Source: Dehalococcoidia bacterium
Lineage (GTDB): Bacteria > Chloroflexota > Dehalococcoidia > Lucifugimonadales > UBA3495
Direction: 5' to 3'
NCBI GenBank assembly: GCA_965249215.1
Contig: CBDFLN010000002.1
Span: forward strand, 305,180-369,179
Length of the DNA stretch: 64,000 bases
Shown piece after piece: positions 6,116 through 55,199 of this stretch. The position numbers were made by a program, and so were the translations under genes. Numbering within the stretch: position 1 is the stretch's first letter; the number at the start of each line of letters is the position of its first letter. The notes below the pieces were generated by a model, which was not told the origin of the DNA, ran no database searches, and saw only the letters and a list, made by a program, of their open reading frames with translations.

Positions 6116-8524
6116 TCAGCCGTCGCCCGCCTTGAATTCGTAGACTACTACGCCGTCCCTCTCGAAGGAGGCTTTAAGGAAATCGCCAAATCCAGATAGA
6201 TGCTCGGCTCCATACGTCGCCTGCTCCCGCTCCCCCACGTACACGTAACGAACGTCGTAACCATCCAGCAACCGGCGGACTGCCTGGCCGTCGCTGCTCC
6301 GGTAGATCCGTTCCACATCCTCCTCCCGGCCCGCAAAAGCCTCGCTTCCGCCTCGCCACTGGAATTCGTGCCCTTTCCATCCCAGCACCGTCGGCAGGCC
6401 GGTGGCAGACGAAATCCTACCGAAGTCCGAGTAGTTGGGCCCCACAGCCTCTACGATGCGTCCCCAGGGAGCTTCGTCCCGCAGCCACTCGATGGCCTCG
6501 TACTCCCCCGGGTCCCGCTCTCGAATAAACGCCAGACCATCCAGCGTATTCCCGCCAGGCCGGCTGCTTGGCTCCAACACTCCCGTGCGGTCCAACACCG
6601 CCCCTACCGGGTAGTACGCCGATGCAACCAGCAACACCGCCGCCGCGGCGGCCCAAACGTACCGTCCCAACCCGGCCGAAAGTCGCGTCCGCGCTGGGAC
6701 CCCGCCGCCGCCCGACTCCTGCGCCGGCTGTCTTCTGGAACTCCAGTAGTACAGCCCGTAGACCCCCGCGACGCCCAGCAGCAGCCAGGCTTGGTAGTAT
6801 ACCTTGAACACCGTGTTCATGCGCCGGAACGCCCCGCCGAAGGCGTCGCTGACGTAGAAAAGTTCTGCTCCCGCCAGCAGGCAAAAGGCCGCCGCCGCCA
6901 ACAGCAGCGGGAAAGCCGCGCCCGTCTCCCGCCCCAATCGGATTCGCTGCGCTGCGCTGTAGGCCGCGACTCCGGCGATGGCCAGCCCTGGCAATACCCA
7001 CAGACCCCGTACCGCAACGTCGGCCAACGCAGTCCAGAGGCCGTCCCTGGGGACGTGCAGCGCCAGCACGATGCCCGACCAGACCAAGATGGGCGCCGCC
7101 GCCGCCGCCAGGACCAACCCGGCCAGCGGCGCATCGTCCCTCGCCGGCAGCCGCAACCCCGGCAACTGCCGCACAAGAAACGACGCCGCAAGCACCGCCA
7201 AAAGCCCCATGGTTATGAAGAACAGGAACGGTCGGGTGCTTACGTCCCGCAGCGGCAGTATCCCTCCTGTCTGGCCATCTAGGGCCAAGTAGAATGGCAG
7301 GAACAGCACCCCCGCCAGAGCCAATATGGGGACCACCAAAGCCGCCGCCCGCAGCATCGCCTGCTGCAGGTCTCCGCCCGCGTCCCGGTAACACCTGATT
7401 AGGACTGCGACTCCCAGCAACGCCGCCAAGAGAGGCAGGTCCCAAAGGTTGATGAAGCCCAACGACCCTATGAACAGCGCAGCTGCTGCAGCCTCCACCG
7501 GGTGACGCCGCAACCATCCCAAGCCCAGCGGCTCCTCAGACCGGAACAGGTTCAGCACCACAGCCAGGGCCAGCAGTAGGAAAGGCAGGCTTAACATGTG
7601 GGCGTGCAAGTCGCCAAGCAGGAAGCTGAACATTGGGAACTCGGTAATCGTATAGTCCAGTTGCTGGCCGTTCTCGAAGGACCCGATTACCCGCGTTGCC
7701 TGCCACCACCAGTTGGGGGCGTCGGGGAATGCCCCCGAACCGGCCGGGCCTGCTTCCAGCCCGGCAATGCCCACCCAGCTCCAGAATCCGTCGCCTCCCC
7801 AACCCCTGGCGTTGACAAACTCCAGTGCCCCTTCGAGGTTCCCAATCAGCAATATCAGCGCCGGTGCGGCCAGCCCGAACCCGATTCCCGCCCTCATGCT
7901 CCCCCCTGACAGCCTCACCAGGTTGTACAGCAGGCCGAAAGCCCCGATTGCCGCGAGTGCGGGCACCAACGATACCGCCAGGTTGTACCCCACGTTGGAA
8001 GGGATGGCCGTCAACTTCACCAGGAAGGCCATGATGAAGTGGCCGAAGTAGTAGTAGCTGATGGAATGACCCGACAGCCACGGGTCCTCGGGGGGGAAGT
8101 GCCGGCTCTGCAGCACCGCGTTCAGGAAACCGAAGTCCATCGGCTTCTCCGTTCCCCGAATCGCCGGAGCCTCCGACGTAATCCATAGCCAGAGGAAGAA
8201 GAAGACCAGGAACACCGCCTCGGCCGCTATGAGAGTCCGCCATTCCTCCTTTAGGAACGCCCACATTTCCTTAGCAGTTCCCCTGAAGACCAGGGCGCTT
8301 ATCACCCCGGCCACAACCGCAATAGCGATGATCGTCCATTGGGTGTTGGGAATCACCCGCGTCAACCCGGCAATCCACAGCACGTAGGCCAGCATCACCA
8401 GGACCATCGGTTTGGCGAAGGTTATTCCCCGGTCGGGAAGCCTGCGGAACAACACGAAGCACAACGGCAAGGCCAGGACGCCCAGCAACTCCACGGTTAA
8501 GAGCCAGGTTAAGGCGTCAACCAT
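6116..8524 (-). CDS. DUF2298 / TIGR03662 'Chlor_Arch_YYY' integral membrane protein
   Basis: 802-aa, very hydrophobic ORF. The hallmark YYYxG motif is present (SISYYYFGH). Confidence 0.8.
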   Translation of the reverse strand: MVDALTWLLTVELLGVLALPLCFVLFRRLPDRGITFAKPMVLVMLAYVLWIAGLTRVIPNTQWTIIAIAVVAGVISALVFRGTAKEMWAFLKEEWRTLIAAEAVFLVFFFLWLWITSEAPAIRGTEKPMDFGFLNAVLQSRHFPPEDPWLSGHSISYYYFGHFIMAFLVKLTAIPSNVGYNLAVSLVPALAAIGAFGLLYNLVRLSGGSMRAGIGFGLAAPALILLIGNLEGALEFVNARGWGGDGFWSWVGIAGLEAGPAGSGAFPDAPNWWWQATRVIGSFENGQQLDYTITEFPMFSFLLGDLHAHMLSLPFLLLALAVVLNLFRSEEPLGLGWLRRHPVEAAAAALFIGSLGFINLWDLPLLAALLGVAVLIRCYRDAGGDLQQAMLRAAALVVPILALAGVLFLPFYLALDGQTGGILPLRDVSTRPFLFFITMGLLAVLAASFLVRQLPGLRLPARDDAPLAGLVLAAAAAPILVWSGIVLALHVPRDGLWTALADVAVRGLWVLPGLAIAGVAAYSAAQRIRLGRETGAAFPLLLAAAAFCLLAGAELFYVSDAFGGAFRRMNTVFKVYYQAWLLLGVAGVYGLYYWSSRRQPAQESGGGGVPARTRLSAGLGRYVWAAAAAVLLVASAYYPVGAVLDRTGVLEPSSRPGGNTLDGLAFIRERDPGEYEAIEWLRDEAPWGRIVEAVGPNYSDFGRISSATGLPTVLGWKGHEFQWRGGSEAFAGREEDVERIYRSSDGQAVRRLLDGYDVRYVYVGEREQATYGAEHLSGFGDFLKASFERDGVVVYEFKAGDG

Positions 8525-8617
8525 GGGTCAATGGTAACAAGGGTGCAGCGCCATGAGCAGTGCGCCGCTAAGAACCGGCGGAAGGCGTAGGCTAGCGGTG
8601 GAGCCCCGGGATACGCA

Positions 8618-8700
8618 GGGTTGCGGTAGAGCCGCGCAGAAGGGGTCGGGTTGCGGCAGACCAGCGCAGAAGGGGTCGGGTTGTGGCAGACCAGCGGGAG
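8618..8700. repeat. Intergenic tandem repeat, 30-bp unit, about 2.7 copies
   Basis: gggttgcggtagagccgcgcagaaggggtc / gggttgcggcagaccagcgcagaaggggtc / gggttgtggcagaccagcggg, read directly. Confidence 0.9.
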
Positions 8701-8763
8701 ACGCGGGGTGGCGGTGGACCCGCGAAAGCCGCAGGGTGTCCGCAGAGTCCTCCCTTGTACGCC

Positions 8764-8817
8764 CTTCCGTAAAACCCTCCCCCGTTCGCCTTTCTGTAAA
8801 ACCCTCCCCCGTTCGCC
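8764..8817. repeat. Intergenic tandem repeat, about 27-bp unit, 2 copies
   Basis: The core gtaaaaccctcccccgttcgcc occurs twice in tandem. Confidence 0.9.
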
Positions 8818-8849
8818 CTGAGGTTCTCGAAGGGCCTAGCCGAGGCGGA

Positions 8850-9806
8850 TCACGGTACCGGGGCCAGCAGGGCGTCGATGAACTCCCTGGAATCGAAAGG
8901 CGCCAGGTCCCCCAGGCTCTCGCCCGTGCCGATGAAGAGTATTGGTACCTGGAGTTCCCGTTTGATTGCAAGGGCTATTCCCCCGCGGGCCGTACCGTCC
9001 AACTTCGAGAGGAAAATGCCGGTGCAGCCCACCGCTTCTTGGAATGACTTGGCCTGAGCCAGGCCGTTGTGGCCCGTGGTCGCGTCCAGCGTCAGTATGA
9101 CCTGGTGCGGCGCCGACGGGTCCTGCCGGTTCAACACCCGCCGGATCTTGCGCAACTCCTCCATAAGGTTGGACTTGGTGTGCAGCCGCCCCGCGGTGTC
9201 TACGATCAGCACGTCTGCGCCCCGGGCTTTGCCGGCCTGGTAGGCGTCGTAGGCCACCGCCCCGGGGTCGGCGCCCGACGCGTGGCCGACTATTTCTACG
9301 CCCACCCTCTGCGCCAGGATTTCCAGCTGCTCCACTCCCGCCGCCCTGAAGGTGTCCGCCGCTCCAAGTATGACCTTCTTGCCTGCTTGCTGGAGATGGT
9401 AGGCCAGCTTGGCAATGCTGGTCGTCTTGCCGACGCCGTTGACCCCTACCATAAGAATCACGTAGGGGCCGGTATGTTCGCCGTCCAGGGCCCACAGGCC
9501 CTCCGGCTCGCCGGAGTCAAGGTCTTGCACCAAGGACTCTTTCAAGGCCTGAAACAAATGCTCCGGGTCTCCCAGCCGGTCTTCCCTGGCCCTCTTCCGC
9601 AACCCGTCGACGATCTCCAGCGAGGTCTCCACGCCGACGTCGGAGGATACCAGGGCTTCCTCCAGTTCTTCCCACACCGATTCGTCCAGGTTGGACGAAC
9701 GCAGCAAACCCATCACCCGCCCCAGCCACCGCTCGCGGGTGGGTTTGACCGCCTCTTCCGTGGTTTTCTTGGTAGAGTCCCCGTCGCGCTTGAACAGGCG
9801 CAGCAT
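8850..9806 (-). CDS. ftsY: Signal recognition particle receptor FtsY
   Basis: SRP-GTPase motifs GVNGVGKTT, DTAGR and SKLDGTARGG. The acidic N-terminal region is typical of FtsY. Confidence 0.95.
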   Translation of the reverse strand: MLRLFKRDGDSTKKTTEEAVKPTRERWLGRVMGLLRSSNLDESVWEELEEALVSSDVGVETSLEIVDGLRKRAREDRLGDPEHLFQALKESLVQDLDSGEPEGLWALDGEHTGPYVILMVGVNGVGKTTSIAKLAYHLQQAGKKVILGAADTFRAAGVEQLEILAQRVGVEIVGHASGADPGAVAYDAYQAGKARGADVLIVDTAGRLHTKSNLMEELRKIRRVLNRQDPSAPHQVILTLDATTGHNGLAQAKSFQEAVGCTGIFLSKLDGTARGGIALAIKRELQVPILFIGTGESLGDLAPFDSREFIDALLAPVP

Positions 9807-9910
9807 CAGACCATCCTTAGACAGGTGGTAATACGCTTAGCAAAGCTTATGTGGGTTTTGGGGGCTGGGTTTCATCCACCATGGCCGATTCTGAACGTCG
9901 GCGGGTCCTG

Positions 9911-10624
9911 CTATTCAGACCGCATGTTGACGCTGGCCGGCGCCACCCGCATCAGGGCGTTTTCCGCCGCCGTCCTCTCCGCTCCGGCCTTGCTGCCCCC
10001 GCGGCCCACCCCCAGCACCTCGTCGTCGACCACAACCTCCACTGTGAACACCGGCCCATGGTCCGGGCCGTCACATGACAATAAACGGTATTGCGGGGCC
10101 GGCCTCCCCTGCCCCTGCACGAATTCCTGCAGGCTGGACTTGGCGTTCTCTCTGGGGATGTTTCCGCCCAGGAACCCTTGCAGTTCTTGGGCCATGGTCT
10201 TCAGGATAAACTGTTGCGCCCCTGCATATCCCCGGTCCAGGTACACCGCCGCCACCACGGCTTCGAAGACGGCCGCTAGGGTCGATTCACGGTCACGGCC
10301 CCCGGTGGCCTCCTCGCCCTTGCCCAGCTTCAAGAACTCCCCGAGAAGGCACCGCTTCGCAACCCGGGCCAGCGTCTCTCCCCGCACCAGGTCCGAACGT
10401 CCCTTGGTAAGCTCTCCTTCGCTCAGGTCGGGGCGGCGCCGGTACAATTCCTCAGAAACGACCAACTCCAGCACCGCGTCGCCCAAGTACTCCAGCCGCT
10501 CGTAAGATGAAGAGAGCGGCCATCCCTGCTCGTTGGCGTAGGACCCATGCACCAAGGCCTGATCCAGCAGTCGCCGGTCCTTGAACTCCAGGCCCAGGGC
10601 TGCTTGCAGGTTGCCGCTCTCCAA
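9911..10624 (-). CDS. rnc: Ribonuclease III
   Basis: RNase III signature ERLEYLGDAVLELVVSE plus a C-terminal dsRNA-binding domain. Confidence 0.95.
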   Translation of the reverse strand: MESGNLQAALGLEFKDRRLLDQALVHGSYANEQGWPLSSSYERLEYLGDAVLELVVSEELYRRRPDLSEGELTKGRSDLVRGETLARVAKRCLLGEFLKLGKGEEATGGRDRESTLAAVFEAVVAAVYLDRGYAGAQQFILKTMAQELQGFLGGNIPRENAKSSLQEFVQGQGRPAPQYRLLSCDGPDHGPVFTVEVVVDDEVLGVGRGGSKAGAERTAAENALMRVAPASVNMRSE

Positions 10625-10632
10625 GGGTTCTC

Positions 10633-11265
10633 CTAGATTATGCCGTGGGGCCAGGGCGGCTGCGGCCGCTTCAGTTCGCCCATGTAAGCGAACTCGCTCA
10701 TTGCTTTGGACAGCGTCTCGTACATCTCAGCCGCTTGCTCGTCGGGAGGAACAAACACTTTCAGGAAGGCCGCTTGGCCGCCCGGAAAGACGAAGGTCGG
10801 CACCCCGAAGGCCCCGTACTCGTCCACGGCTTTGGTGTGGCTTTCTCCAATTTGCCTTACCAAGTCGGGGTCCGCCAGGTCTTCCCTGAAGCGGGCCAGG
10901 TCAAGCCCGGAGCTGGCCGCGGCTTGGAGAATTACCGCCTCGTCGTCCAAGTCGGCCCTGTCTTCGTGCCGCGCCCGGAGCAAAGTCATGAAGAAGGACT
11001 TGAAGGCCTCTTTGCCCTGTCGCTTAGCCGCCAAGCCGGCCTGGTGAGCCAGCAACGTGGGGTCCGAACCGTCCAAGATTTCCGGCTGTTCCCAAATCTT
11101 GAAGCCTTCTTCCCGATCGCTGTTGGCCTGGTTCAGACTAAAAGGCTGCCAGTCGATGTCCACCGGCTTTCCGGTCATCTCTTCTACTTTTGCCAGCCAC
11201 ACGGCGGCATTGTAGACGAAGGGTCAACGAAAGTCGTAGTAAGTGGTTACTTCTGGTTCAGACAT
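10633..11265 (-). CDS. DsbA-like / 2-hydroxychromene-2-carboxylate isomerase (kappa-GST) family thioredoxin-fold protein with an in-frame TGA (candidate selenocysteine)
   Basis: The ORF track starts at GTG 11202. The same frame continues upstream through TGA 11224-11226 to ATG 11263-11265, which is preceded by AGGAGGGG. The N-terminus reads MSEPEVTTYYDFR-[TGA]-PFVYNAAVW, and the TGA aligns with the catalytic S/C of the FDFxS/CPxxY motif. Confidence 0.7.
11184..11215 (-). promoter_or_regulatory. Stem-loop downstream of the in-frame UGA (bacterial SECIS-like)
   Basis: The mRNA reads CUAC-AAU-GCCGCC-GUGU-GGC(U)GGC-AAAA-GUAG. This gives a 6-bp GC stem with one bulged U, a GUGU apical loop starting 21 nt after the UGA, and a 4-bp lower stem. 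Confidence 0.45.
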
Positions 11266-11386
11266 CTTAGCCCCTCCTGGTCTTCGTCGTGACTAGATTC
11301 TATCCATAGCCGCTATTGTTGTCAAAAACCGTGGTTCTCCTACAACCCACCGGGGGGCAGTCCGAGCCTGATTCAGGGGCCTCGTA

Positions 11387-15466: not shown

Positions 15467-17908
15467 TTGACCCCCCGTTCCATTCGAGGATTCGCTATGC
15501 CCAGTACCTATTGTAGCACCGGGCCGGAATCCGCGCGGATCGGCGCTGCGCCCGACGCGCAGGTCGGCGCTGTGCCCCCTCCCGACTTTTCCGGCATCGC
15601 CGTTACCCGGTACGCGAACGCGTACGACAATCAGGGACAGCCATCGAATCTCCAAGCAATTCTCGATGAGATCAGGTCCAGCGCTCTCAAAAAAACCGTC
15701 GAATGGTTGCGGACCCTAAACAAGCCGGAGTACGACCGGGCCAAGCCACAGCTCCCCGCCGTCACTTTCTCCGGCAAGTTTGAACGCCGGGCTATTGCTG
15801 GCTTAATTGAGCACTCCCGTATTGTAGTCCTAGACTTGGACCACCTGGACGATCCCGAAGCACTGAAAGCCCAGCTTGCCGCCAATCCAGCCGTTCTTTC
15901 AGTCTTTACGTCTCCCAGCGGCACCGGCCTCAAAATCTTAATCGCCTGCACTGCGCCGGAAAACGTCAAGAACCCGAACGCAAAATGGTGGGGACGCAAA
16001 CACCTGGATTTTTGGCAATCTGCCATCTTGACGCTGCCCGCCGAGTTGCAAAAGACCGTTGACCCGTCCGGCAAGGATGTATCCCGGTTATGTTTCCTCT
16101 CCTGGGACCCGCACCCCTATATCATCCCGGAGGAACAACGACCTACTCCGATTCTCCCCACGTCTCAGGCCAGGGTAGATACGCCCGATACACCAGACCT
16201 AGCGACGGCCACAGATGCCGACAAAGCCAAAGATGCACTTGGCTATCTGGCCCAGAAGAAAGTGGCCGAGGACGATTCCCATTTTCTAGCCGTCGCCAAC
16301 TGCCTTAAAGCCATGGGGCATCGCTTCGCCGAATTCGACTCTTGGGCAGCCCAGGCCGGGTGCTCCTGCACCGACCGGCAGCAACGCTGGGAGTCCCTCA
16401 GTCCAGCCGATCATGATTACAGCGCAATCATCGGGCTAGCGTGGAACATGGATTGGCGGCTGGCGCAGTCCACTGATGACATCCTCCGCGATGCCTTGGG
16501 AGACGAATGCCAAGACATGCAGGAAGACGCAAACCATCAGACGAGAGGCAAGAGGCCGAAGGAAAAAACGCATTCGATGTTCAATTCGGACCAGCCGCGG
16601 GACGGCATTTCCGGGCATTGGGTAGTCGAAACCTGCGGCGACTCGCTTCGGTCCTACTTGGACACCTTCGCGGTAAAAACCCCCGCCGGGTTGTGGGTTC
16701 CATATCAAAGCCGCGCCCTTGATAGCAAATCGGCACTCGGCAGCGTTATCCAAAGTCGCGGTGCCGAAACGGGCTGCCCCGTGGAAGCGCAGCCCTGGCT
16801 GACACCGAAAGTCTATGCCGGCATCATCGAGCAAGTTCACATCGCCAAGCGCGACGGCAAGTTCAAAGAATTGGACCCGCTAGAGATGGCTCAAATGCCC
16901 ATCGTCCCATATTCCGATGGCTCTCATCAACACCTCGACCGACCAGACCTGGCCGCTGCCTGCCGGTGCGATCTAAATGGGATTGGGTGGTTAGACTTGG
17001 GGTGGCGCATCCCGCCCGTTGATTGGGAGCTGCTCGATAAGCCGCCCACTCTATTCGAGCAGTTTCCCGAAGGGGTGTTCCGATTACTGGCTCGGTACTT
17101 GCATGGCCCACAGAAAGCGCAAGACATCGTGCGCGCCGTAGTAGCGGATGCGGGCAAGCCAGCACTCGCCTTAGCCCTGTGTCAAGCCCTCCCGGGGGCA
17201 GCAGTCCATATAGATGCAGCCACTCACTTTGAGCCAGGGCGCAGCCGCTTCACCCCAGGACTCATCCCCCTGACCGAAGCTCGGATCGTCGTCTACGACG
17301 AAATGGGCCGCAGTGAGGCATCCTTAACCCGCTCGATTTTCTCCATGTCTGACCCCTATGTTCCCATCGAAAAGAAGGGCAGGGACATGGCACGTGCTCC
17401 ACGCATTGGCTCTGGCCTATTCATCGGGCACAGTTTCCCCGACGTCGACTTGTCCGAACAGGGAACCGACCAGCGCGTCGGGGCGGTTTGGGACTTCCCC
17501 TCATTGCAAGCTATATCCGCCGATATGCGGGACCTCTGGCTCACCGCCAAACAGACCGCACGTCTTCGAGCTTGGATCATATGGCTTGCTATGCAAACCT
17601 GGGGAACCCGGAACGCTAAACCCTGGCTCACCCCGGAACGGAGCGAGTTGCTCAAAACCGAGTTCATCCCCCAGGCGGTTACGGTGCTGCGCGAGACCTT
17701 CCAGCATCGAAGTCCTGACGAACTGATCCCGTCCAAGGAAATTGACCAGGCATTTAAAGACGCTGGTGTGGCTGTACCCAAAACCAAGGCTAAGTCGAAA
17801 GTTGTTCAGCAGGCTTGGCCGAAAGCACAGAACAGCAGCGACGGCACGACAAGGGGGTGGAAAGGGATCGGCAATGCGGAGACGATAGAGGGGATAAGTA
17901 GATTGTGA
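15467..17908 (+). CDS. Primase-like replication protein (BT4734/VirE_N-type N-terminal domain plus PriCT-2-like domain)
   Basis: VVLDLDHLDD and SPSGTGLKILIAC resemble the BT4734-type primase core. FLAVANCLKAMGHRFAEFDSWA resembles PriCT. The start is uncertain (ATG 15497 is possible). Confidence 0.7.
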   Translation: MTPRSIRGFAMPSTYCSTGPESARIGAAPDAQVGAVPPPDFSGIAVTRYANAYDNQGQPSNLQAILDEIRSSALKKTVEWLRTLNKPEYDRAKPQLPAVTFSGKFERRAIAGLIEHSRIVVLDLDHLDDPEALKAQLAANPAVLSVFTSPSGTGLKILIACTAPENVKNPNAKWWGRKHLDFWQSAILTLPAELQKTVDPSGKDVSRLCFLSWDPHPYIIPEEQRPTPILPTSQARVDTPDTPDLATATDADKAKDALGYLAQKKVAEDDSHFLAVANCLKAMGHRFAEFDSWAAQAGCSCTDRQQRWESLSPADHDYSAIIGLAWNMDWRLAQSTDDILRDALGDECQDMQEDANHQTRGKRPKEKTHSMFNSDQPRDGISGHWVVETCGDSLRSYLDTFAVKTPAGLWVPYQSRALDSKSALGSVIQSRGAETGCPVEAQPWLTPKVYAGIIEQVHIAKRDGKFKELDPLEMAQMPIVPYSDGSHQHLDRPDLAAACRCDLNGIGWLDLGWRIPPVDWELLDKPPTLFEQFPEGVFRLLARYLHGPQKAQDIVRAVVADAGKPALALALCQALPGAAVHIDAATHFEPGRSRFTPGLIPLTEARIVVYDEMGRSEASLTRSIFSMSDPYVPIEKKGRDMARAPRIGSGLFIGHSFPDVDLSEQGTDQRVGAVWDFPSLQAISADMRDLWLTAKQTARLRAWIIWLAMQTWGTRNAKPWLTPERSELLKTEFIPQAVTVLRETFQHRSPDELIPSKEIDQAFKDAGVAVPKTKAKSKVVQQAWPKAQNSSDGTTRGWKGIGNAETIEGISRL

Positions 17909-20301: not shown

Positions 20302-20505
20302 GAATTAGCTACCAACAGACACGCGTGGGGGCAAGTTCTGGTCAAGTCGTATCTGAGGGCGACTTGACCACCTTGACCACTCAGATACGGAAAGTGTGGC
20401 AAAGGTGGTTAACCATTTACCCGCAACGCAAGGGGAAATTGTCTAAGAGAAGACCAACAAAGCTATATAACTATTTCACTTTTGGCGGGGACTGAGGGAG
20501 GCTCA

Positions 20506-21774
20506 ATGGCCTACGACTTGAACCTATTCGCGCATCCTGGGCAGGCTCCCAAGATTCCACCGACTCGCCGGTGGGACGAAATGCCGGGGCGTCTGGTTGA
20601 CCCGGACGTGATTCGGAGCATGACCCCCGACGACCTGCACCGGGATCGCTGGACCATTGAGAAGCGAATTGAAATGTGGCAGAAAATCGAGGCGCAGCAC
20701 CAACGGTCCCGCGAGAAGAGCCCCGGCTATCCGGTGAGTAATGGGCTTTATATCCTGTCGGGGCCGATGGGTTCAGGCAAGAGCCTCTACGCGGTCTCAG
20801 TGGCCCTTGCTGCCCATGCGAAGTTGGCAATCCCGGTGTTCTCCCCGGTGAGCGCCGGGCTGCTGTTTGGCCGTCACATCACGCTTGAACAAATGTATCA
20901 GTTTCCCGACATACTTCCACAGGGAAGTATCTTGGTTTGTGATGAGATTGCGGCCCTGGCCGACGCCTCGGGTACTCAGGCTATGCGGAACCGGACCTTG
21001 GGCGCGTCGATGACCGCGTTCAGGAAAAGCCAAGGGTTAGTCCTGGGTGCAAGCGCGGCGGAATGGGCCATAGCGGGGAATCTTCGCGTCTCCGCCGAGG
21101 CGACAATAACGCCATCCCGGTATTGGCCGAAAAAGAGCGTGGTGGTGGGTTACACGAGCAAATGGGAAGAGATACGCCAAAGGGTTCCTCTAAAGCGGCA
21201 TGAGCTTGAATTTCCTGAGTTCTGCTATATGACCGTTAAAGGATTGAAGGTGCCGTGGGACCGGAGACGAATCCAAGAGGACTTCGAGCAGGAGCTACGA
21301 AAGGCACGTGCTCCGAAGCATCGCAGAGGGCCGGACGTAGACCTGTCCCGGTGGCACCCGATTAAGGTTGCCCCACCGTGGCCACAACTGGCCTACTGCG
21401 CCAGTGCGCTCTACGATACCTTTAGCCGCGTTCCGGTATCGGACCAACATTTTATCGACGCCGACCGAATCCGAGCGGCGGCTTATCAGGCCGAGGGCGC
21501 GGGCGACTCGGACGGCCTGACCTTCAGCGCCCGGGCATACGATTTCCTCCAGTGGAGCCTCGACACAAACCTTTACGACAACTCACTGGCAAAGGGGTAT
21601 GTCGAGTTCGAGCGATTGATGGAAGGGGCCATAGCCTTTGACGCTGCCACGTTCAAGGGCGTTCAGATGACGGCGTTCAAGCGGGCGATTCAGAAACATC
21701 TGCCGGACGCTTGCACCAGGAGGCGGGTGGAGATCGACGGGATCATGGCCCTGGCCGCCGGGAACAAATCATAA
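20506..21774 (+). CDS. P-loop NTPase (FtsK/TraB-like or Zot-like), possible DNA translocase
   Basis: Walker A LSGPMGSGKS and Walker B-like ILVCDEIAALAD. GAGGGAGG RBS lies before ATG 20506. Confidence 0.7.
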   Translation: MAYDLNLFAHPGQAPKIPPTRRWDEMPGRLVDPDVIRSMTPDDLHRDRWTIEKRIEMWQKIEAQHQRSREKSPGYPVSNGLYILSGPMGSGKSLYAVSVALAAHAKLAIPVFSPVSAGLLFGRHITLEQMYQFPDILPQGSILVCDEIAALADASGTQAMRNRTLGASMTAFRKSQGLVLGASAAEWAIAGNLRVSAEATITPSRYWPKKSVVVGYTSKWEEIRQRVPLKRHELEFPEFCYMTVKGLKVPWDRRRIQEDFEQELRKARAPKHRRGPDVDLSRWHPIKVAPPWPQLAYCASALYDTFSRVPVSDQHFIDADRIRAAAYQAEGAGDSDGLTFSARAYDFLQWSLDTNLYDNSLAKGYVEFERLMEGAIAFDAATFKGVQMTAFKRAIQKHLPDACTRRRVEIDGIMALAAGNKS

Positions 21775-24406: not shown

Positions 24407-26125
24407 CCCGAATCCACCGAAGGAGGGCGTCGGGTTAGCGTCCTGAAGCGGCAAGAAGGTGCTCCTGTGCTTCTGGGATAATGGTTTTGTAGCAAAAAAC
24501 CGACCCCGGAAAAGGAGCACCCAATAGATGCTGCCACGCAACCACCCCGACCGGATCCAAATCACCTTCGACGACCGCCGCTTGGTGGCCAATGCCGGGC
24601 TGCTCCTTCCGGCCACCCTGGCGCGGCACCTCGGCCTGCCCGAACTCGTCCGGCAGCGCCTCGACCTGGGCGATGCCCCGGGGCGGGCGAACACGAGCGA
24701 CAAGATGATGACGCTGGTGGCGTCTGCGCTGGCTGGGGGCGACTGCATTGACGACGCCGATGTGTTGCGCACCGGGGGGACGGCCTGCACCCTGGGCGGC
24801 ACGGTCAAGGCGCCATCCACCCTGGGCACCTTCCTGCGCAGCTTCCGGTGGGGCCACGTCCGTCAACTCGACCGGGTGAGCCGCGAGTTGCTGGCCCGGG
24901 CTTGGCAGGCCGGGGCGGGACCCGGCGACGGGCCCCTGACCATTGACCTGGACTCCACCATCTGCGAGACCTACGGACTGGCCAAGGAGGGCGCACGCCA
25001 CCACGGCTATACCGGCAAGCGGGGCTATCACCCGCTGTTGGCCGTCGCCGCCGGCACCGGCGACGTGCTGATGTCCCGGCTGCGCGAGGGCCGCGCCAAC
25101 ACCGCCCGGGGCGCCGCCCACTTTCTGCGGGAGACGGTGGGGCGGGTACGCTACGCCGGGGCCAACGGACGACTCACGCTACGGGCCGACAGCGGGTTCT
25201 ACACTCATGGCGTGGTATCCGTCTGCCGCAAGATGGATGTCCGCTTCTCCATCACCATCCGCCAGCACAAGAGCCTGCGCAATCTCATCGAGACGATACC
25301 CGAGGATGCCTGGACTCCCATTCCCTACTGGATGGACGGCGCCGCCGATGTGGCCGAGACCACCTGCACTCCCTTCCAGAGTGAACCTGACGCCGCGCCG
25401 GTGCGGCTCATCGTCCGGCGTGTGAAGCCCACGCCCGGTTCCCAGTTGGCCCTCTTCGCCAAATACAGCTATCACGGCTTCATCACCGACCGGGACGGGG
25501 AGTTGCTCGAACTGGAGGCTGACCATCGCCGCCACGCCGAGATCGAGAATGCCATACGCGACCTCAAGTACGGCGTCGGGCTCAACCATCTCCCCTCGGG
25601 CCGCTTCGCCGCCAACGGCGCCTGGCTGGCCGTCCAGACGATGGCCCACAACCTGGCCCGCTGGACCGCGCGGATCGGTCTGGGAGAGCGGATAGCCACC
25701 ACCAAGACCCTCCGGCGGCGGTTCTTCTCCCTGGCCGGACGGCTCACCCGCTCGGCACGCCGGTTGACCCTGCATCTTCCGGATCGCTGGCCTTGGGCTG
25801 AGAAGTTCAGCCGCGCCTTGGCCCGGCTGCGAGCCATTCCACTCCCGGCCTGACGGCACCGTCGGCGACCGACCCACCCACCGGACAACCGAAGATCCCC
25901 GCAGACTCGCGCCAGCCCGGTCCGAGAGAGTTCCCTGCTGCGTATTCTCTCGCCATCCCGCGCATCGCAGCTCCTGCAGACGCCCATAGGGGCCCCTGTG
26001 CGGCGATGAAGACCGTCCGCCGACCTCCCTACCCCAAATGGAACCCAGGCTATTTCCCCTGTAGCTCCCTCATCCCCCTTCCGCTTTCCTCACGCCGTCC
26101 ATCGGTGTCCTTCGGTGGATTCGGG
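24407..26125 (+). mobile_element. IS1380-family insertion sequence (1719 bp)
   Basis: Perfect 17-bp terminal inverted repeats cccgaatccaccgaagg (24407-24423 and 26109-26125). They are flanked by the direct repeat ataag (24402-24406 and 26126-26130). Confidence 0.85.
24528..25853 (+). CDS. IS1380-family DDE transposase
   Basis: 441 aa. The N-terminus ..ITFDDRRLVANAGLLLPATLARHLGL is typical of IS1380 transposases. Confidence 0.9.
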   Translation: MLPRNHPDRIQITFDDRRLVANAGLLLPATLARHLGLPELVRQRLDLGDAPGRANTSDKMMTLVASALAGGDCIDDADVLRTGGTACTLGGTVKAPSTLGTFLRSFRWGHVRQLDRVSRELLARAWQAGAGPGDGPLTIDLDSTICETYGLAKEGARHHGYTGKRGYHPLLAVAAGTGDVLMSRLREGRANTARGAAHFLRETVGRVRYAGANGRLTLRADSGFYTHGVVSVCRKMDVRFSITIRQHKSLRNLIETIPEDAWTPIPYWMDGAADVAETTCTPFQSEPDAAPVRLIVRRVKPTPGSQLALFAKYSYHGFITDRDGELLELEADHRRHAEIENAIRDLKYGVGLNHLPSGRFAANGAWLAVQTMAHNLARWTARIGLGERIATTKTLRRRFFSLAGRLTRSARRLTLHLPDRWPWAEKFSRALARLRAIPLPA

Positions 26126-38396: not shown

Positions 38397-40145
38397 ATGT
38401 ACCACCCTGGTGGAACAATCAAAGAGGTGCTGCGGTGCATCGAAAAAAATGAATACGTACTCCCGGCGATCCAGAGGGAGTTCGTCTGGGGTCCCGACAA
38501 AATCTGCGCATTATTCGACAGCTTGATGCAAGGATATCCGTTTGGAGAGTTTCTGTTCTGGAATATTGATGCGGGACATTCTGCGGAGTACAAGTATTAT
38601 GGACTTGTCGTTGATTATCACCAACGGGACGACCCTCATTGTCCCGAGGCCCATATCATGCCGGGAAGGCCGATCACGGCTGTGCTCGACGGTCAGCAAC
38701 GTTTGACTGCTTTTAATATTGGCCTACGCGGTTCAATGGCTGTCAAGCGGCCCTATAAGCGATGGAATAGCCCTGATGCGTTTCCTAGGCGGGTTCTAGC
38801 GCTGGATTTACTGGCGTCGAATGAACCGGATGAGGAAGGCAATCGCTACATTTTCGAGTTCATTGAGGAAGACAGGATTGGACACAAGAATGAACGGCTG
38901 TGGTTCAAAGTTTCGGACATCCTAACGATGCAATCTGGGCCACCCATGCTCAAGTGGTTGACTGAACACAAGCTTGGCGACACGGAATTGAATCTTGCTT
39001 TTGAAAGGCTCGATCGATTGTATCAGGCTGTGCACAACGACCAAACGGTCTGCTACTACGAAGAGAAGAACCAAGACATTGAACACGTACTCAACATATT
39101 CATTCGGCGCAATAGCGGCGGAACGGTTCTCTCTTACTCGGACCTCCTGCTCAGCATAGCCACGTCCCAATGGGAAGAACTGGATGCTCGAAAAGAGGTC
39201 CACCAATTAGTAGACGACCTGAATCGCATCGGGCCAGGTCTTGGCCTAACTAAAGACTTCGTATTGAAAGCCGGCCTGATGCTAACAGACATAGCAAGCG
39301 TCGGATTTCAAGTCCGGAACTTCACCCGGGCGAATATGGCAGTCCTAGAAAAGAATTGGTCCCAGATTAGCTCCGCTTTGATCGAGACGGTCCAATTGGT
39401 AGCGGCGTTCGGGTTTGATAGCAACAGCATCCGAGCCAATAGCGCTCTGTTGCCTATCGCGTACTACATCTACCAACTGGGAGCTCCCTCGGATTTTGAT
39501 GTCCACAGCAGATTTCAAGAGGACCGTCGAGCAATTCGAGGTTGGCTGATACGCTCCATCTTGAAGGCGTCAGGAATTTGGGGAAGTGGGCTGGACACTT
39601 TGCTCACTGCGCTCCGTGACGTTATTCGCAGCACTAACAACGGCCATTTCCCAGCGGTGGAAATGAGACAAGTCATGCACCTACGAGGGAAGGACTTAGA
39701 TTTTTCAAAGGAGGAATTCGAGGACCTTGCCGATATGGCCATCAACGACCGGCGGGTTTTCGCTTTACTGACGCTCGTGTTGCCTTCTATAGACGTACGG
39801 ACCCATCATTTTCATATCGACCACATTTTCCCCAAGAGCCGCTTTACAAAGGCCCAACTTCGCAACGCCGGAGTGGCCGACGAACACCAGGATGCCTATA
39901 GCGACCGCGCCAATCGAATAAGCAATTTGCAACTACTTGAAGGGATTCCAAATGTTGAGAAACGGGCCAAGATGCCGACAGAATGGATGGATGAGCACTT
40001 TACAGACGAACAAGCCCGGCAGCATTACAGCGAATTGTATCTCCTAGGAGAGGTTCCGAAGGAAATAACCAAGTTCATGGACTTTTATGAAGTGCGGAGA
40101 GAGCGGTTACAAGAAAAAATTGGTCAGCTAGTAAATTCCGCTTGA
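38397..40145 (+). CDS. GmrSD-like DUF262/DUF1524 protein (candidate type IV modification-dependent restriction enzyme)
   Basis: DUF262 motifs IQREFVWG and DGQQRLTA. C-terminal His-Me/DUF1524 motif HIDHIFPKS..N.QLL. It is visibly AT-richer than the flanks. Confidence 0.85.
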   Translation: MYHPGGTIKEVLRCIEKNEYVLPAIQREFVWGPDKICALFDSLMQGYPFGEFLFWNIDAGHSAEYKYYGLVVDYHQRDDPHCPEAHIMPGRPITAVLDGQQRLTAFNIGLRGSMAVKRPYKRWNSPDAFPRRVLALDLLASNEPDEEGNRYIFEFIEEDRIGHKNERLWFKVSDILTMQSGPPMLKWLTEHKLGDTELNLAFERLDRLYQAVHNDQTVCYYEEKNQDIEHVLNIFIRRNSGGTVLSYSDLLLSIATSQWEELDARKEVHQLVDDLNRIGPGLGLTKDFVLKAGLMLTDIASVGFQVRNFTRANMAVLEKNWSQISSALIETVQLVAAFGFDSNSIRANSALLPIAYYIYQLGAPSDFDVHSRFQEDRRAIRGWLIRSILKASGIWGSGLDTLLTALRDVIRSTNNGHFPAVEMRQVMHLRGKDLDFSKEEFEDLADMAINDRRVFALLTLVLPSIDVRTHHFHIDHIFPKSRFTKAQLRNAGVADEHQDAYSDRANRISNLQLLEGIPNVEKRAKMPTEWMDEHFTDEQARQHYSELYLLGEVPKEITKFMDFYEVRRERLQEKIGQLVNSA

Positions 40146-51664: not shown

Positions 51665-51832
51665 ATGTATGAGATATGCATCGACAGCAGAGAGGTGATA
51701 CGAAGGTTGGACCGGGAAGGCTGGGAACTTGACCGAGTGAACGGGAGCCACCACATCTTTGCGAACCCAGGAAAGCCGGGCTCTGTTACGGCTCCCCATC
51801 CCAGGAAGGACTTGGGAATGAAGATTCTTTAG
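51665..51832 (+). CDS. hicA: HicA-family toxin (short C-terminus)
   Basis: 55-aa ORF not in the track: MYEICIDSREVIRRLDREGWELDRVNGSHHIFANPGKPGSVTAPHPRKDLGMKIL. The GW..(x5)GSHH.F...G....V.PHP.KDL pattern fits HicA. Its last 47 nt overlap the recombinase gene. Confidence 0.7.
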   Translation: MYEICIDSREVIRRLDREGWELDRVNGSHHIFANPGKPGSVTAPHPRKDLGMKIL

Positions 51833-53417
51833 ACGCAATTGCGACGGACTCAGGCTCAGGGGAATCACCGTCGATGGGTATAGCCAGCGTGATGTCCACG
51901 TTGTTGTCCCTATCGATGACGACCTGCTCCACGATCATCTGGAGAATCTCCTTGCGCTGCTCGGGGGTCAACTCGTCCAGTCCCTGGCCGACCTCTCTCG
52001 CCCAGGCTAGGACAGCCTCCATCAGCCGCCGCTTCTCAGCTCCGCCCACCTCCTGAGCATGGTAATCGTCCAGCTTCGCCCTGGCGCTCTCAAGCCGCTC
52101 GGTGATGAACTTGCGCTGATGGTCGAGTTGGGCCTCGGTGATCTTCCCCGACACGAACAGCCTGATGGCGCGGTCCTCTTCCATCTGGATGCTCCGCAGG
52201 TCTCGCTCGGCTTGGGCGATCTCCTCCTCCAATCCGCCGCCCTCTGGAGAATCGAGGGTGTCGATACCGGCGACGATCAGGTCGGGGTTCTGGATTACCC
52301 GCTTCACCTCGCTCCATATCGGCTCCTCCAACCGCTCCGCCCGGATGTAGGGACGCTCCCGACAGCGCAGGCGCATACTCTGCATTCCGTTGCACATGTA
52401 GTATCGGTTGGGAGTGGGAAGGTCGTAGCGGTACTTCTTGCCGTTGCGAACGTTGGTGGTGCTCCGGGTGCATCTTGCATGGAAATTGTGGCCACACTCG
52501 CCGCATTTCAGAAGGTGCTGCAACAGGTAGAGCACATTCGTGTTCCTCTTGGCCTTCCTGCTCCGCTGCTTCTTCAGCGCCTGCGCCCGCTCCCAGGTCT
52601 CGTCGTCGATGATCTGCGGGACCGGGATCTCAATCCAGGTGTCCCTCGGCTGGTCGTAGATCTTCATTCCGTCCTCGGTGGAGATGTGGCGGTACCTGCC
52701 GTAGACCCAGGTACCCGTGTAGGTGGTATTCCCCAGGATGTGGTGCACGCGGGACTGAAGCCATAGCAGCTTGCCGGTCTGAGTGGGGATTCCCTCGTCG
52801 GTCAGCCGCACGGCAATGGAGTAGGACCCCATCCCCTCATGGACGTACATGTGGAAGATGCGGCGCACAACCTCGGCCTGCTCCTCAATCGCCTCGGGCC
52901 TGCCGTCGTCCCCGATGCGGTATCCGTAGGGGAGGCCGCCGGTGGGCACCCGTCCCTGCTTGGCCGTCCCCCGCTTGCCCATAGTGGACCGCTCCCGGAA
53001 GTTGTCCAGCTCGATCTTGCCGATGGCCGCCATGAGTCCGAAGGTCTTCATGTCGATGGAGTCCATGACGGCTTCCAGCCGTATCTGGTGGGCCTCGACG
53101 ACCTCCATGAGGGCGGCGGCGGGGTACATCCCCCGGCTGAGCCGGTCTGATTTCCAGCAGACGATGGTGTCAAAGCGCCCGCGTTTGGCGTCGGCCAGCA
53201 TCCGGAGGAACTCGGGGCGCTTCTTGGACCAGCCCCTGCCCACCTCCTGGTAGCGGGCGGTAATAGTCATGCCCTTGGCCTCGCAGTAGGCTTCCATCTC
53301 GTTGCTCTGCTCGGAGAGGGAGGTCTTGTCGTCCTCAGCCTGGCTCTTGTCCGATACGCGGGCGTAGATGACCGCCCTCTTGCCGTTTGCCTGTCTCTGT
53401 GTCCTGGTTCCCGCCAC
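51786..53417 (-). CDS. Large serine recombinase
   Basis: Resolvase catalytic N-terminus RAVIYARVSDKSQ, recombinase domain, Zn-ribbon (CGECGHNFH..C) and coiled-coil C-terminus. GTG start after AAAGGAGGAAATC. Confidence 0.9.
   Translation of the reverse strand: MAGTRTQRQANGKRAVIYARVSDKSQAEDDKTSLSEQSNEMEAYCEAKGMTITARYQEVGRGWSKKRPEFLRMLADAKRGRFDTIVCWKSDRLSRGMYPAAALMEVVEAHQIRLEAVMDSIDMKTFGLMAAIGKIELDNFRERSTMGKRGTAKQGRVPTGGLPYGYRIGDDGRPEAIEEQAEVVRRIFHMYVHEGMGSYSIAVRLTDEGIPTQTGKLLWLQSRVHHILGNTTYTGTWVYGRYRHISTEDGMKIYDQPRDTWIEIPVPQIIDDETWERAQALKKQRSRKAKRNTNVLYLLQHLLKCGECGHNFHARCTRSTTNVRNGKKYRYDLPTPNRYYMCNGMQSMRLRCRERPYIRAERLEEPIWSEVKRVIQNPDLIVAGIDTLDSPEGGGLEEEIAQAERDLRSIQMEEDRAIRLFVSGKITEAQLDHQRKFITERLESARAKLDDYHAQEVGGAEKRRLMEAVLAWAREVGQGLDELTPEQRKEILQMIVEQVVIDRDNNVDITLAIPIDGDSPEPESVAIASKESSFPSPSWDGEP

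Positions 53418-53625: not shown

Positions 53626-55199
<1,574 letters not shown>

Follow-up and report, generated by a model that had tools for sequence, protein, structure and literature searches.

The locus and its features

The window (the whole stretch of 64,000 nt that was analysed) carries genes in the order OGG, ADH, and CCA-adding enzyme, followed by a gene for a DsbA-like protein, rnc, ftsY, and a DUF2298 gene. The DsbA-like gene is encoded on the minus strand. In the mechanical list of open reading frames, it starts at GTG 11202 and has a product of 189 aa. The initial annotation had read the same frame further upstream, from an ATG located 5 nt after AGGAGGGG, and had interpreted an in-frame TGA at the active-site position as a selenocysteine (Sec) codon. 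Translation of the minus strand from 11265 to 10633 gives MSEPEVTTYYDFR*PFVYNAAVWLAK...HGII*, where TGA 11226-11224 is the sole internal stop. The N-terminal peptide read from ATG 11265 is SEPEVTTYYDFR. The features of this locus are listed below.

10633..11265, minus strand: complete gene for a DsbA-like protein of 210 residues, one of them a predicted Sec (ATG 11265-11263, Sec codon 14, stop codon TAG 10635-10633; from translation)
11224..11226, minus strand: in-frame TGA at residue 14, very probably read as Sec (context CGT-TGA-CCC; TGA/Cys column in homologues)
11271..11278, minus strand: Shine-Dalgarno sequence AGGAGGGG (read directly; 5 nt before ATG 11265-11263)
11297..11325, minus strand: sigma-70-type promoter-like site (TTGACA at 11325-11320, 17 nt, TAGAAT at 11302-11297; 11 of 12 consensus matches)
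11191..11209, minus strand: core bSECIS-like hairpin (U-GCC-GCC / loop GUGU at 11202-11199 / GGC-(U bulge)-GGC-A)
11183..11216, minus strand: outer stem UCUAC ... GUAGA that lengthens the core hairpin (formed by the window sequence and by L001-L003; not conserved)
9911..10624, minus strand: rnc (RNase III), next gene of the apparent operon (NCBIfam TIGR02191, 1.7e-72)
8850..9806, minus strand: ftsY, third gene of the conserved array (NCBIfam TIGR00064, 4.7e-102)

The promoter-like site places the transcript start upstream of ATG 11265. Of 36 related loci, 35 have a site of this type (TTGACA-16/18-TA(A/C)AAT) ahead of the start codon. At the other end of the gene, the Shine-Dalgarno sequence of rnc (AGGAG, 10634-10630) overlaps the stop codon. 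The encoded protein is devoid of Cys, and its active site reads D11-F-R-U14-P-F-V17.

Conservation of the reading frame across the TGA

A protein search returned 675 relatives of the DsbA-like product. Among the best 120 of these, 11 have a length of 206-210 aa, read FYDFRCPFVYNA, and carry Cys in the TGA column. Another 108 have a length of 176-195 aa and begin just past this column, which is the signature of gene callers halting at a TGA. One further sequence among the best 120 (P0022, from a 147-member cluster) reads ...YYDFRWPFVYNAAVW with Trp at the site, and the underlying DNA codon is again TGA. The 210-aa Cys homologues, such as P0063 (Cys14), are collinear with the full coding sequence from residue 1.

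DNA-level scans extended this picture. With one genome per GTDB species, 35 loci were obtained, all from Dehalococcoidia/Chloroflexota MAGs. Each of the 35 has TGA at codon 14, preceded by a Shine-Dalgarno sequence and the peptide M-x-x-x-x-x-T-(T/S)-(Y/F)-Y-D-F-R. A metagenome scan contributed 80 further loci, with identities down to ~45%. The site is within the contig in 78 of them, and the codon is TGA in 77 and TGC in one. Altogether, 112 distinct Sec-form genes from Dehalococcoidia/SAR202 genomes and metagenomes have TGA, as opposed to Cys in 6 loci. The initial annotation had expected Cys or Ser in this column. Cys was found, encoded by TGT or TGC (P0033, P0037, P0052, P0063, and others; loci L036-L040, L042, and L059), and one such relative lies in an identical gene order. 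In the relatives that were read, Cys is the only amino acid specified by a sense codon at this position, and Ser never occurs.

The start codon is located exactly 13 codons upstream of the TGA in 91 of 98 Sec-form genes, and 90 of the 98 with enough upstream sequence have a Shine-Dalgarno-like motif, which corroborates the proposed start at ATG 11265-11263. Amino acids are kept at codons 7-13 and 15-20 while third positions vary, and the upstream codons show free synonymous change (Thr as ACC/ACA/ACT/ACG, Asp as GAT/GAC, Phe as TTC/TTT). This indicates purifying selection on a peptide that is translated in frame with the downstream part. The UGA follows an Arg codon, for which CGU is used in 97 of 99 cases. 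No Cys is found anywhere in 96 of 106 Sec forms.

It might be argued that the protein really starts downstream of the TGA, at GTG 11202 or its equivalent, and that the 13 upstream codons are a leader ORF or are untranslated. This start has been selected by all gene callers, hence the 176-195 aa of 108 among the best 120 matches, and the 37 closest sequences have GTG or ATG as codon 22. However, some members (L113, L117) have ATT or GGG there, and no Shine-Dalgarno sequence is found ahead of this codon; the Shine-Dalgarno sequence and the promoter-like site precede the upstream ATG, and GTG 11202 itself is positioned in the apical loop of the core hairpin. The upstream peptide is under selection at the amino acid level, in frame with the rest of the protein, and residues 1-6 already mark the beginning of the Pfam DSBA match and of the Cys homologues. 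Translation from residue 22 would also be predicted to yield a thioredoxin fold without strand 1 and its active-site turn: the AlphaFold2 (AF2) model described below puts both strand 1 and the site upstream of this residue, in line with the earlier statement that the ORF from GTG 11202 lacks the active-site strand. With the frame conserved across the TGA in 112 distinct genes, we consider a downstream start highly improbable.

Even less credible is the view that the TGA stems from an error of sequencing or assembly, or that the gene is a pseudogene inactivated by mutation; this reading is effectively refuted. It has in its favour the bare presence of an internal stop codon and nothing more. 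Many assemblies and technologies have yielded this TGA, in 112 distinct sequences; it is present in all 35 species genomes and in 77 of the 78 metagenome loci. Purifying selection acts on both sides of it. The same TGA, next to a synonymous change from CCC to CCA, also occurs on an independent contig of another assembly, whose 189-aa ORF product is identical to that of the window. The TGA is thus genuine.

A SECIS-like hairpin downstream of the TGA

The initial annotation had drawn a hairpin downstream of the TGA. The window sequence folds as proposed, with -18 kcal/mol on 66 nt: CUAC/GUAG forms an outer stem around U-GCC-GCC / GUGU / GGC-(U)-GGC-A, and the apical loop opens 21 nt past the UGA. 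The outer stem, however, is not conserved: most class-2 sequences lack it, and codon 27 (GTN) is free to vary. Only the upper hairpin of 7 bp is kept. Compared with shuffled sequences, the window hairpin is weakly better (z = -1.5; 13 of 200 shuffles fold equally well), so the single sequence is suggestive rather than decisive and the comparative data carry the case.

The hairpin can be formed by all Sec forms, with the 5' arm at nt 17-23 and the 3' arm at nt 28-35, counted from the U of the UGA. The loop is (G/A)UGU, and one extra nucleotide occurs at varying positions in the 3' arm. RNAalifold, applied to the first 37 sequences, did not recover this hairpin and returned a spurious weak consensus, because the bulge register shifts between sequence classes. 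Pairs were therefore counted with explicit register models. In 114 loci, 41 distinct versions of the hairpin occur, 26 of them with 7-8 bp and zero mismatch and 14 with one mismatch, counts which overstate the number of independent events since the sequences are related and the stem is largely encoded by the conserved peptide N-A-A-V-W-L-A. Several pair types are found at four stem positions (UA/CG/UG; CG/UA; six types at one position; GC/AU/GU). In locus L097, the lower stem UGCC/GGCA is replaced by CGUA/UACG via coordinated replacements of Ala to Val and Ala to Thr. In the largest class, a change from Ala-Val to Asn-Met (GCC GUG to AAC AUG) is coupled with a synonymous change of a Leu codon from CUG to UUG. 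Within one fixed register, covariation is modest, with only one pair altered on both sides.

Sec and Cys forms were also compared with respect to folding. The local hairpin of 37 Sec forms has a minimum free energy (MFE) between -9.9 and -10.3 kcal/mol, as opposed to -4.7 to -7.0 kcal/mol in five Cys forms. Against synonymous recodings of the same peptide, the Sec forms have a mean z of -1.6 (76 sequences, half of them at p <= 0.05), and z ranges from -1.2 to +0.9 in six Cys forms. Synonymous entropy is low at the codons of the upper stem and loop (Ala21, 0.30; Val22, 0.59; Ala25, 0.65), compared with about 1.8-1.9 at Val17, Val27, and Val37.

The published model of bacterial SECIS elements describes an apical loop of 3-9 nt with G in the first two loop positions, an upper stem of 4-16 bp, a distance of 16-37 nt from the UGA, and an MFE <= -7.5 kcal/mol. 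The hairpin has a GUGU (or AUGU) loop, a 7-bp stem with at most one bulge, a spacing of 21 nt, and an MFE of -10.3 (30 nt) to -15.0 (36 nt) kcal/mol, and agrees with this model. Rfam yielded no additional support: the run with gathering thresholds detected only a group II intron elsewhere and nothing at the hairpin, and a permissive local scan of 11100-11300 had zero matches. Taken together, the comparative sequence data strongly support that the 7-bp upper hairpin acts as a bacterial SECIS element, which is degraded in the Cys forms.

Decoding of the TGA

A third possibility is that the UGA is decoded as a standard amino acid (Trp, Gly, or Cys), either by reassignment of the codon or by near-cognate read-through. 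One database pipeline has in fact assigned Trp at this position in the 147-member cluster of P0022. Furthermore, the Sec machinery is not seen directly: the 64-kb window has no tRNA gene according to ARAGORN and no SelA, SelB, or SelD according to NCBIfam (20 ORFs), and no sel gene or tRNA-Sec is found in the ~6-kb flanks on either side of the gene in 35 related loci. Such a small fraction of the genome is sampled in this way that this absence is expected and uninformative. On the other hand, TGA is the terminator of 7 of the 15 family-verified genes in the window and thus is not reassigned genome-wide. Cys, the sole alternative among homologues at this site, is the chemical analogue of Sec, and the SECIS-type hairpin is conserved in the TGA forms only.

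A sister genome is, in addition, catalogued as rich in selenoproteins. All entries of BSepDB are from species with a Sec pathway, according to the paper which describes this database. For [quoted passage not shown], 46 selenoprotein genes are listed there, and for a further Dehalococcoidia MAG, 49. The former MAG is the source of locus L004, where the gene is 71% identical and syntenic to that of the window and has the TGA. Decoding as a standard amino acid is thus very unlikely, if slightly less so than a start downstream of the TGA.

A screen of the window for further TGA-interrupted genes based on GC3 proved to be unspecific. In a codon-usage screen, TGA 11226-11224 ranked first, and no other credible candidate was detected within the window.

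With 112 TGA homologues, Cys in the corresponding column of other relatives, and a hairpin that obeys the bSECIS rules, sequence comparison supports the original assignment. We consider it very likely, with a probability of about 0.9, that TGA 11226-11224 is read as Sec in the DsbA-like gene.

Fold and closest relatives

Sequence profiles and a predicted structure assign the gene product to the DsbA-like superfamily of thioredoxin-fold proteins. If Sec is entered as C, residues 6-166 match Pfam DSBA (PF01323) with 65.2 bits (cut-off 25.6; 8.8e-18). The match covers profile positions 2-177 of 191 and spans the TGA, which, together with the translation, confirms that the TGA occupies the active-site position of a DsbA-like gene. 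The HMM for Rv2466c-like proteins (PF22234) scores 38 bits (cut-off 27). NCBIfam has zero matches to the protein and no family model for it. The protein has no signal peptide, with strand 1 beginning at residue 6, and is probably cytoplasmic.

The representative search was run with the Cys orthologue P0063 in place of the window sequence. The AF2 model of P0063 (pLDDT 88.8, pTM 0.86) has a strand at 6-10, Cys14 in a short loop just before the helix 15-31, a helical insert at 61-150, and strands at 157-170 after an invariant G-V-P-T. The top match in the PDB is DR2335 from Deinococcus radiodurans (7DK9), whether sequences (E 7.9e-20, residues 7-203) or folds (Foldseek E 6.8e-12, TM 0.76-0.77) are compared. 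Residue 14 aligns with Cys24 of DR2335 (motif FDFLCPYAW), which has been mutated to Ser in 7DKA. The proteins have in common the motif FDF-x-C-P-aromatic, the absence of a second Cys, and a C-terminal ..KRP.P, but DR2335 has Cys rather than Sec, is only about 30% identical, and is from a different phylum. The literature describes DR_2335 as DsbA-like, with one conserved Cys, and reports neither a function nor expression for it. The more distant full-length relatives all have (F/Y)-(F/Y)-D-(F/Y)-x-C-P-aromatic and no second Cys.

By fold, DR2335 is followed by YjbH, Rv2466c, HCCA isomerase, kappa-GST, and FrnE, all of which are much weaker matches. The likeness to kappa-GST, HCCA isomerase, and FrnE, which had been stated initially, holds at the level of the DsbA-like fold class, but the closest proteins are those of the single-Cys DR2335 type, then YjbH and Rv2466c. 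The mycothiol-dependent reductase Rv2466c and FrnE (DR_0659) share with the window protein a cytoplasmic DsbA-like fold (for Rv2466c, Foldseek E about 1e-6). Rv2466c employs a low-molecular-weight thiol as external partner, and a cycle of this type is proposed below for the window protein. Rv2466c and FrnE, however, both have CPWC, and FrnE has also a C-terminal CxxxxC, whereas the window protein, with about 17% identity, is devoid of a second Cys.

Kappa-GST and HCCA isomerase belong to the same DsbA-like fold class (Foldseek E 2e-5 to 1e-4, TM about 0.6) and share with the window protein the motif D-x-x-(S/C/U)-P where helix 1 begins. In these enzymes, Ser is catalytic and binds GSH. Membership in this family was rejected: phmmer E-values are 0.11-0.47 and restricted to residues 98-164 in the C-terminal half, Foldseek ranks these proteins below DR2335, YjbH, and Rv2466c, and the nucleophile is Sec or Cys, never Ser, in the relatives that were read.

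Gene neighbourhood

In the relatives, rnc is directly downstream of the DsbA-like gene in 112 of 122 loci. The gene ftsY is found further downstream in 81 loci, which is essentially every locus reaching far enough. The DsbA-like gene thus heads a strictly conserved array of DsbA-like gene, rnc, and ftsY. The gene for the Cys orthologue P0063, which is located on a 304-kb contig, has exactly the gene order of the window, from OGG through DUF2298. This identical gene order shows that the Sec/Cys pair is orthologous and not merely homologous. Among the Cys loci, L036 is the one with the order of OGG, ADH, and CCA-adding enzyme, then the DsbA-like gene, rnc, and ftsY. Fusion with dephospho-CoA kinase is seen in three distant Cys relatives.

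Relation to known selenoproteins

Three groups of DsbA-like selenoproteins have been described which are relevant for comparison. The GOS subfamily "DsbA 3" (pfam01323, motif UxxV) comprises 5 Sec sequences and 72 Cys homologues (Zhang & Gladyshev, 2008; PMC2398784). The "DsbA-like protein form 2" is characterized by PF01323 and the motif DxxUP (Zhang et al., 2026, a review; PMC13188914). DsbA-like selenoproteins with UxxC were reported from the Sargasso Sea in 2005.

The window protein has the same Pfam domain as "DsbA 3" and "form 2", and its D-F-R-U-P-F-V fits both UxxV and DxxUP. These proteins are likewise from marine metagenomes, with Sec in place of the N-terminal active-site Cys and no second Cys. 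Based on motif and domain description, the family thus appears to be already catalogued under these two names. The "form 2" representative given in the review (MDP6049977.1) has a crotonase name, which does not fit the stand-alone protein of the window. While Cys is in the majority in "DsbA 3" (5 Sec vs. 72 Cys), Sec strongly predominates in the clade sampled here.

The DsbA-like form 1 (COG2761/FrnE-like, UxxC) also has Sec at the N-terminal active site and a bacterial SECIS immediately downstream. However, form 1 keeps the resolving Cys, whereas the window protein has Val at this position (U-P-F-V) and no Cys at all. Identity with FrnE or DsbA-like form 1 was therefore rejected. Without a resolving Cys, exchange between dithiol and selenol-thiol states within the motif is impossible.

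Proposed expression and chemistry

Transcription would start at the strong and conserved promoter and translation at ATG 11265. The UGA lies in a U-UGA-C context, and the compact hairpin, with a GUGU loop that begins 21 nt downstream, would act as a bacterial SECIS. SelB with its Sec-tRNASec would probably be recruited by the hairpin, and Sec would be incorporated where translation would otherwise terminate. The same transcript probably runs on into rnc and ftsY.

In the folded protein, Sec14 is predicted to be positioned just ahead of helix 1 and to face the conserved G-V-P-T loop, with its Pro presumably in cis conformation. Sec14 would be the only redox-active residue, at the site of the nucleophilic Cys of DsbA, Rv2466c, and DR2335. 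The selenolate most likely attacks a disulfide, a mixed disulfide, or an oxidised sulfur on the substrate. As there is no resolving Cys, the resulting selenenyl-sulfide must be resolved by an external thiol, which would correspond to the cycle of a monothiol-type reductase or thiol-transferase. We thus infer that the protein is a monoselenol oxidoreductase or thiol-transferase.

A more far-reaching and rather doubtful proposal is that the Sec-dominant, Cys-free DR2335-type clade is a core housekeeping selenoenzyme of marine SAR202/Dehalococcoidia, which operates by external-thiol chemistry, is coexpressed with RNase III and FtsY from the near-consensus promoter, and acquires its Sec via an unusually compact 7-bp SECIS and a near-invariant CGU-UGA-C. 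In this proposal, the external thiol might be coenzyme A: the fusion of three independent Cys relatives with dephospho-CoA kinase suggests, for example, the removal of protein-CoA or other S-thiol adducts.

Significance

The gene represents neither a new recoding mechanism nor a new kind of selenoprotein but is an ordinary selenoprotein gene that is routinely mis-annotated. The database copies that were examined are all wrong: they have 176-195 residues and are devoid of the catalytic residue, or they have Trp at the site. A simple rule, based on TGA conservation, hairpin, and synteny, allows >100 SAR202/Dehalococcoidia genes to be corrected. Details that are possibly new are the dominance of Sec in the clade, the position in the rnc-ftsY array, the CGU before the UGA, and the fusions with dephospho-CoA kinase. 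The gene also directs attention to the DR2335-type family. It is a well-supported case of abundant ocean Chloroflexi spending selenium on a single-selenol DsbA-like enzyme that heads an rnc-ftsY array.

Codon context of the Sec-UGA

Arginine is encoded by six codons. The Arg codon directly 5' of the Sec-UGA of the DsbA-like gene is CGT in 97 of the 99 Arg-bearing genes among the 122 related loci (L001-L122) and the window (here at 11227-11229, minus strand), and the synonymous entropy at this codon is 0.17. The UGA is invariably followed by a Pro codon, which results in a U-UGA-C context. This sequence pattern, with its near-invariant CGT, suggests that, in addition to the bSECIS-like hairpin, the context of the UGA constrains Sec insertion or termination.

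Genomic context

The DsbA-like gene belongs to an array of strictly conserved order. Among loci L001-L122, rnc is found directly 3' of it in 112, and a near-consensus promoter (TTGACA-17-TAnAAT) is found upstream of the array in 35 of 36 loci. In the window, the stop codon of the DsbA-like gene is overlapped by the AGGAG of rnc.

Array and other features of the window
8850-11325, minus strand: DsbA-like gene, rnc and ftsY array including its promoter
15467-17908: PrimPol-like ORF, inside the low third-position GC stretch
51786-53417: large serine recombinase, low third-position GC stretch
54108-54208, minus strand: group II catalytic intron RF00029 (Rfam, 63.4 bits, E 4e-10)

A second contig, L123 from an independent assembly, codes for an identical 189-aa ORF product. 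It carries a Ser/Thr protein kinase gene (8107-9585) between the genes for the CCA-adding enzyme and the DsbA-like protein; unlike L123, the window has no such kinase gene at this position.

Elsewhere in the window, third-position GC is lower at about 15400-43100 and at 51786-53417, while the surrounding genes are otherwise core. This stretch, which carries several large ORFs, looks like an integrated mobile island. Two of these large ORFs (20482-21774 and 38397-40145) were scanned and had no NCBIfam match. The product of ORF 24528-25853 (442 aa) matches in length that of a DDE-transposase gene (Pfam) on L123 (441 aa).

Relatives with Cys at the Sec position

The main group of relatives with Cys at the TGA column consists of L037, L040, L042, and L059 and carries the peptide NATMWLEK. 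The neighbours rnc and ftsY are absent around L037 and L059, the contigs of which are long enough for this assessment (those around L040 and L042 do not reach far enough for a judgement). Two other Cys forms, L036 and L038, are located inside the rnc/ftsY array. In some members of the family, Sec loss may be connected with relocation of the gene.

Nearly all database copies among the best 120 of 675 protein-search relatives are cut off at the TGA (176-195 aa), and Trp has been translated at the Sec position in a cluster of 147 members (P0022, corresponding to L041). Mis-annotation of this protein is systematic across public collections.

Three independent cluster representatives (P0142, P0155, and P0193), which are distant Cys relatives with about 40% identity, are fusions of dephospho-CoA kinase with a single-Cys DsbA-like domain (CoaE Pfam match, E 1e-46 to 1e-49). 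These fusions hint at a connection to coenzyme A.
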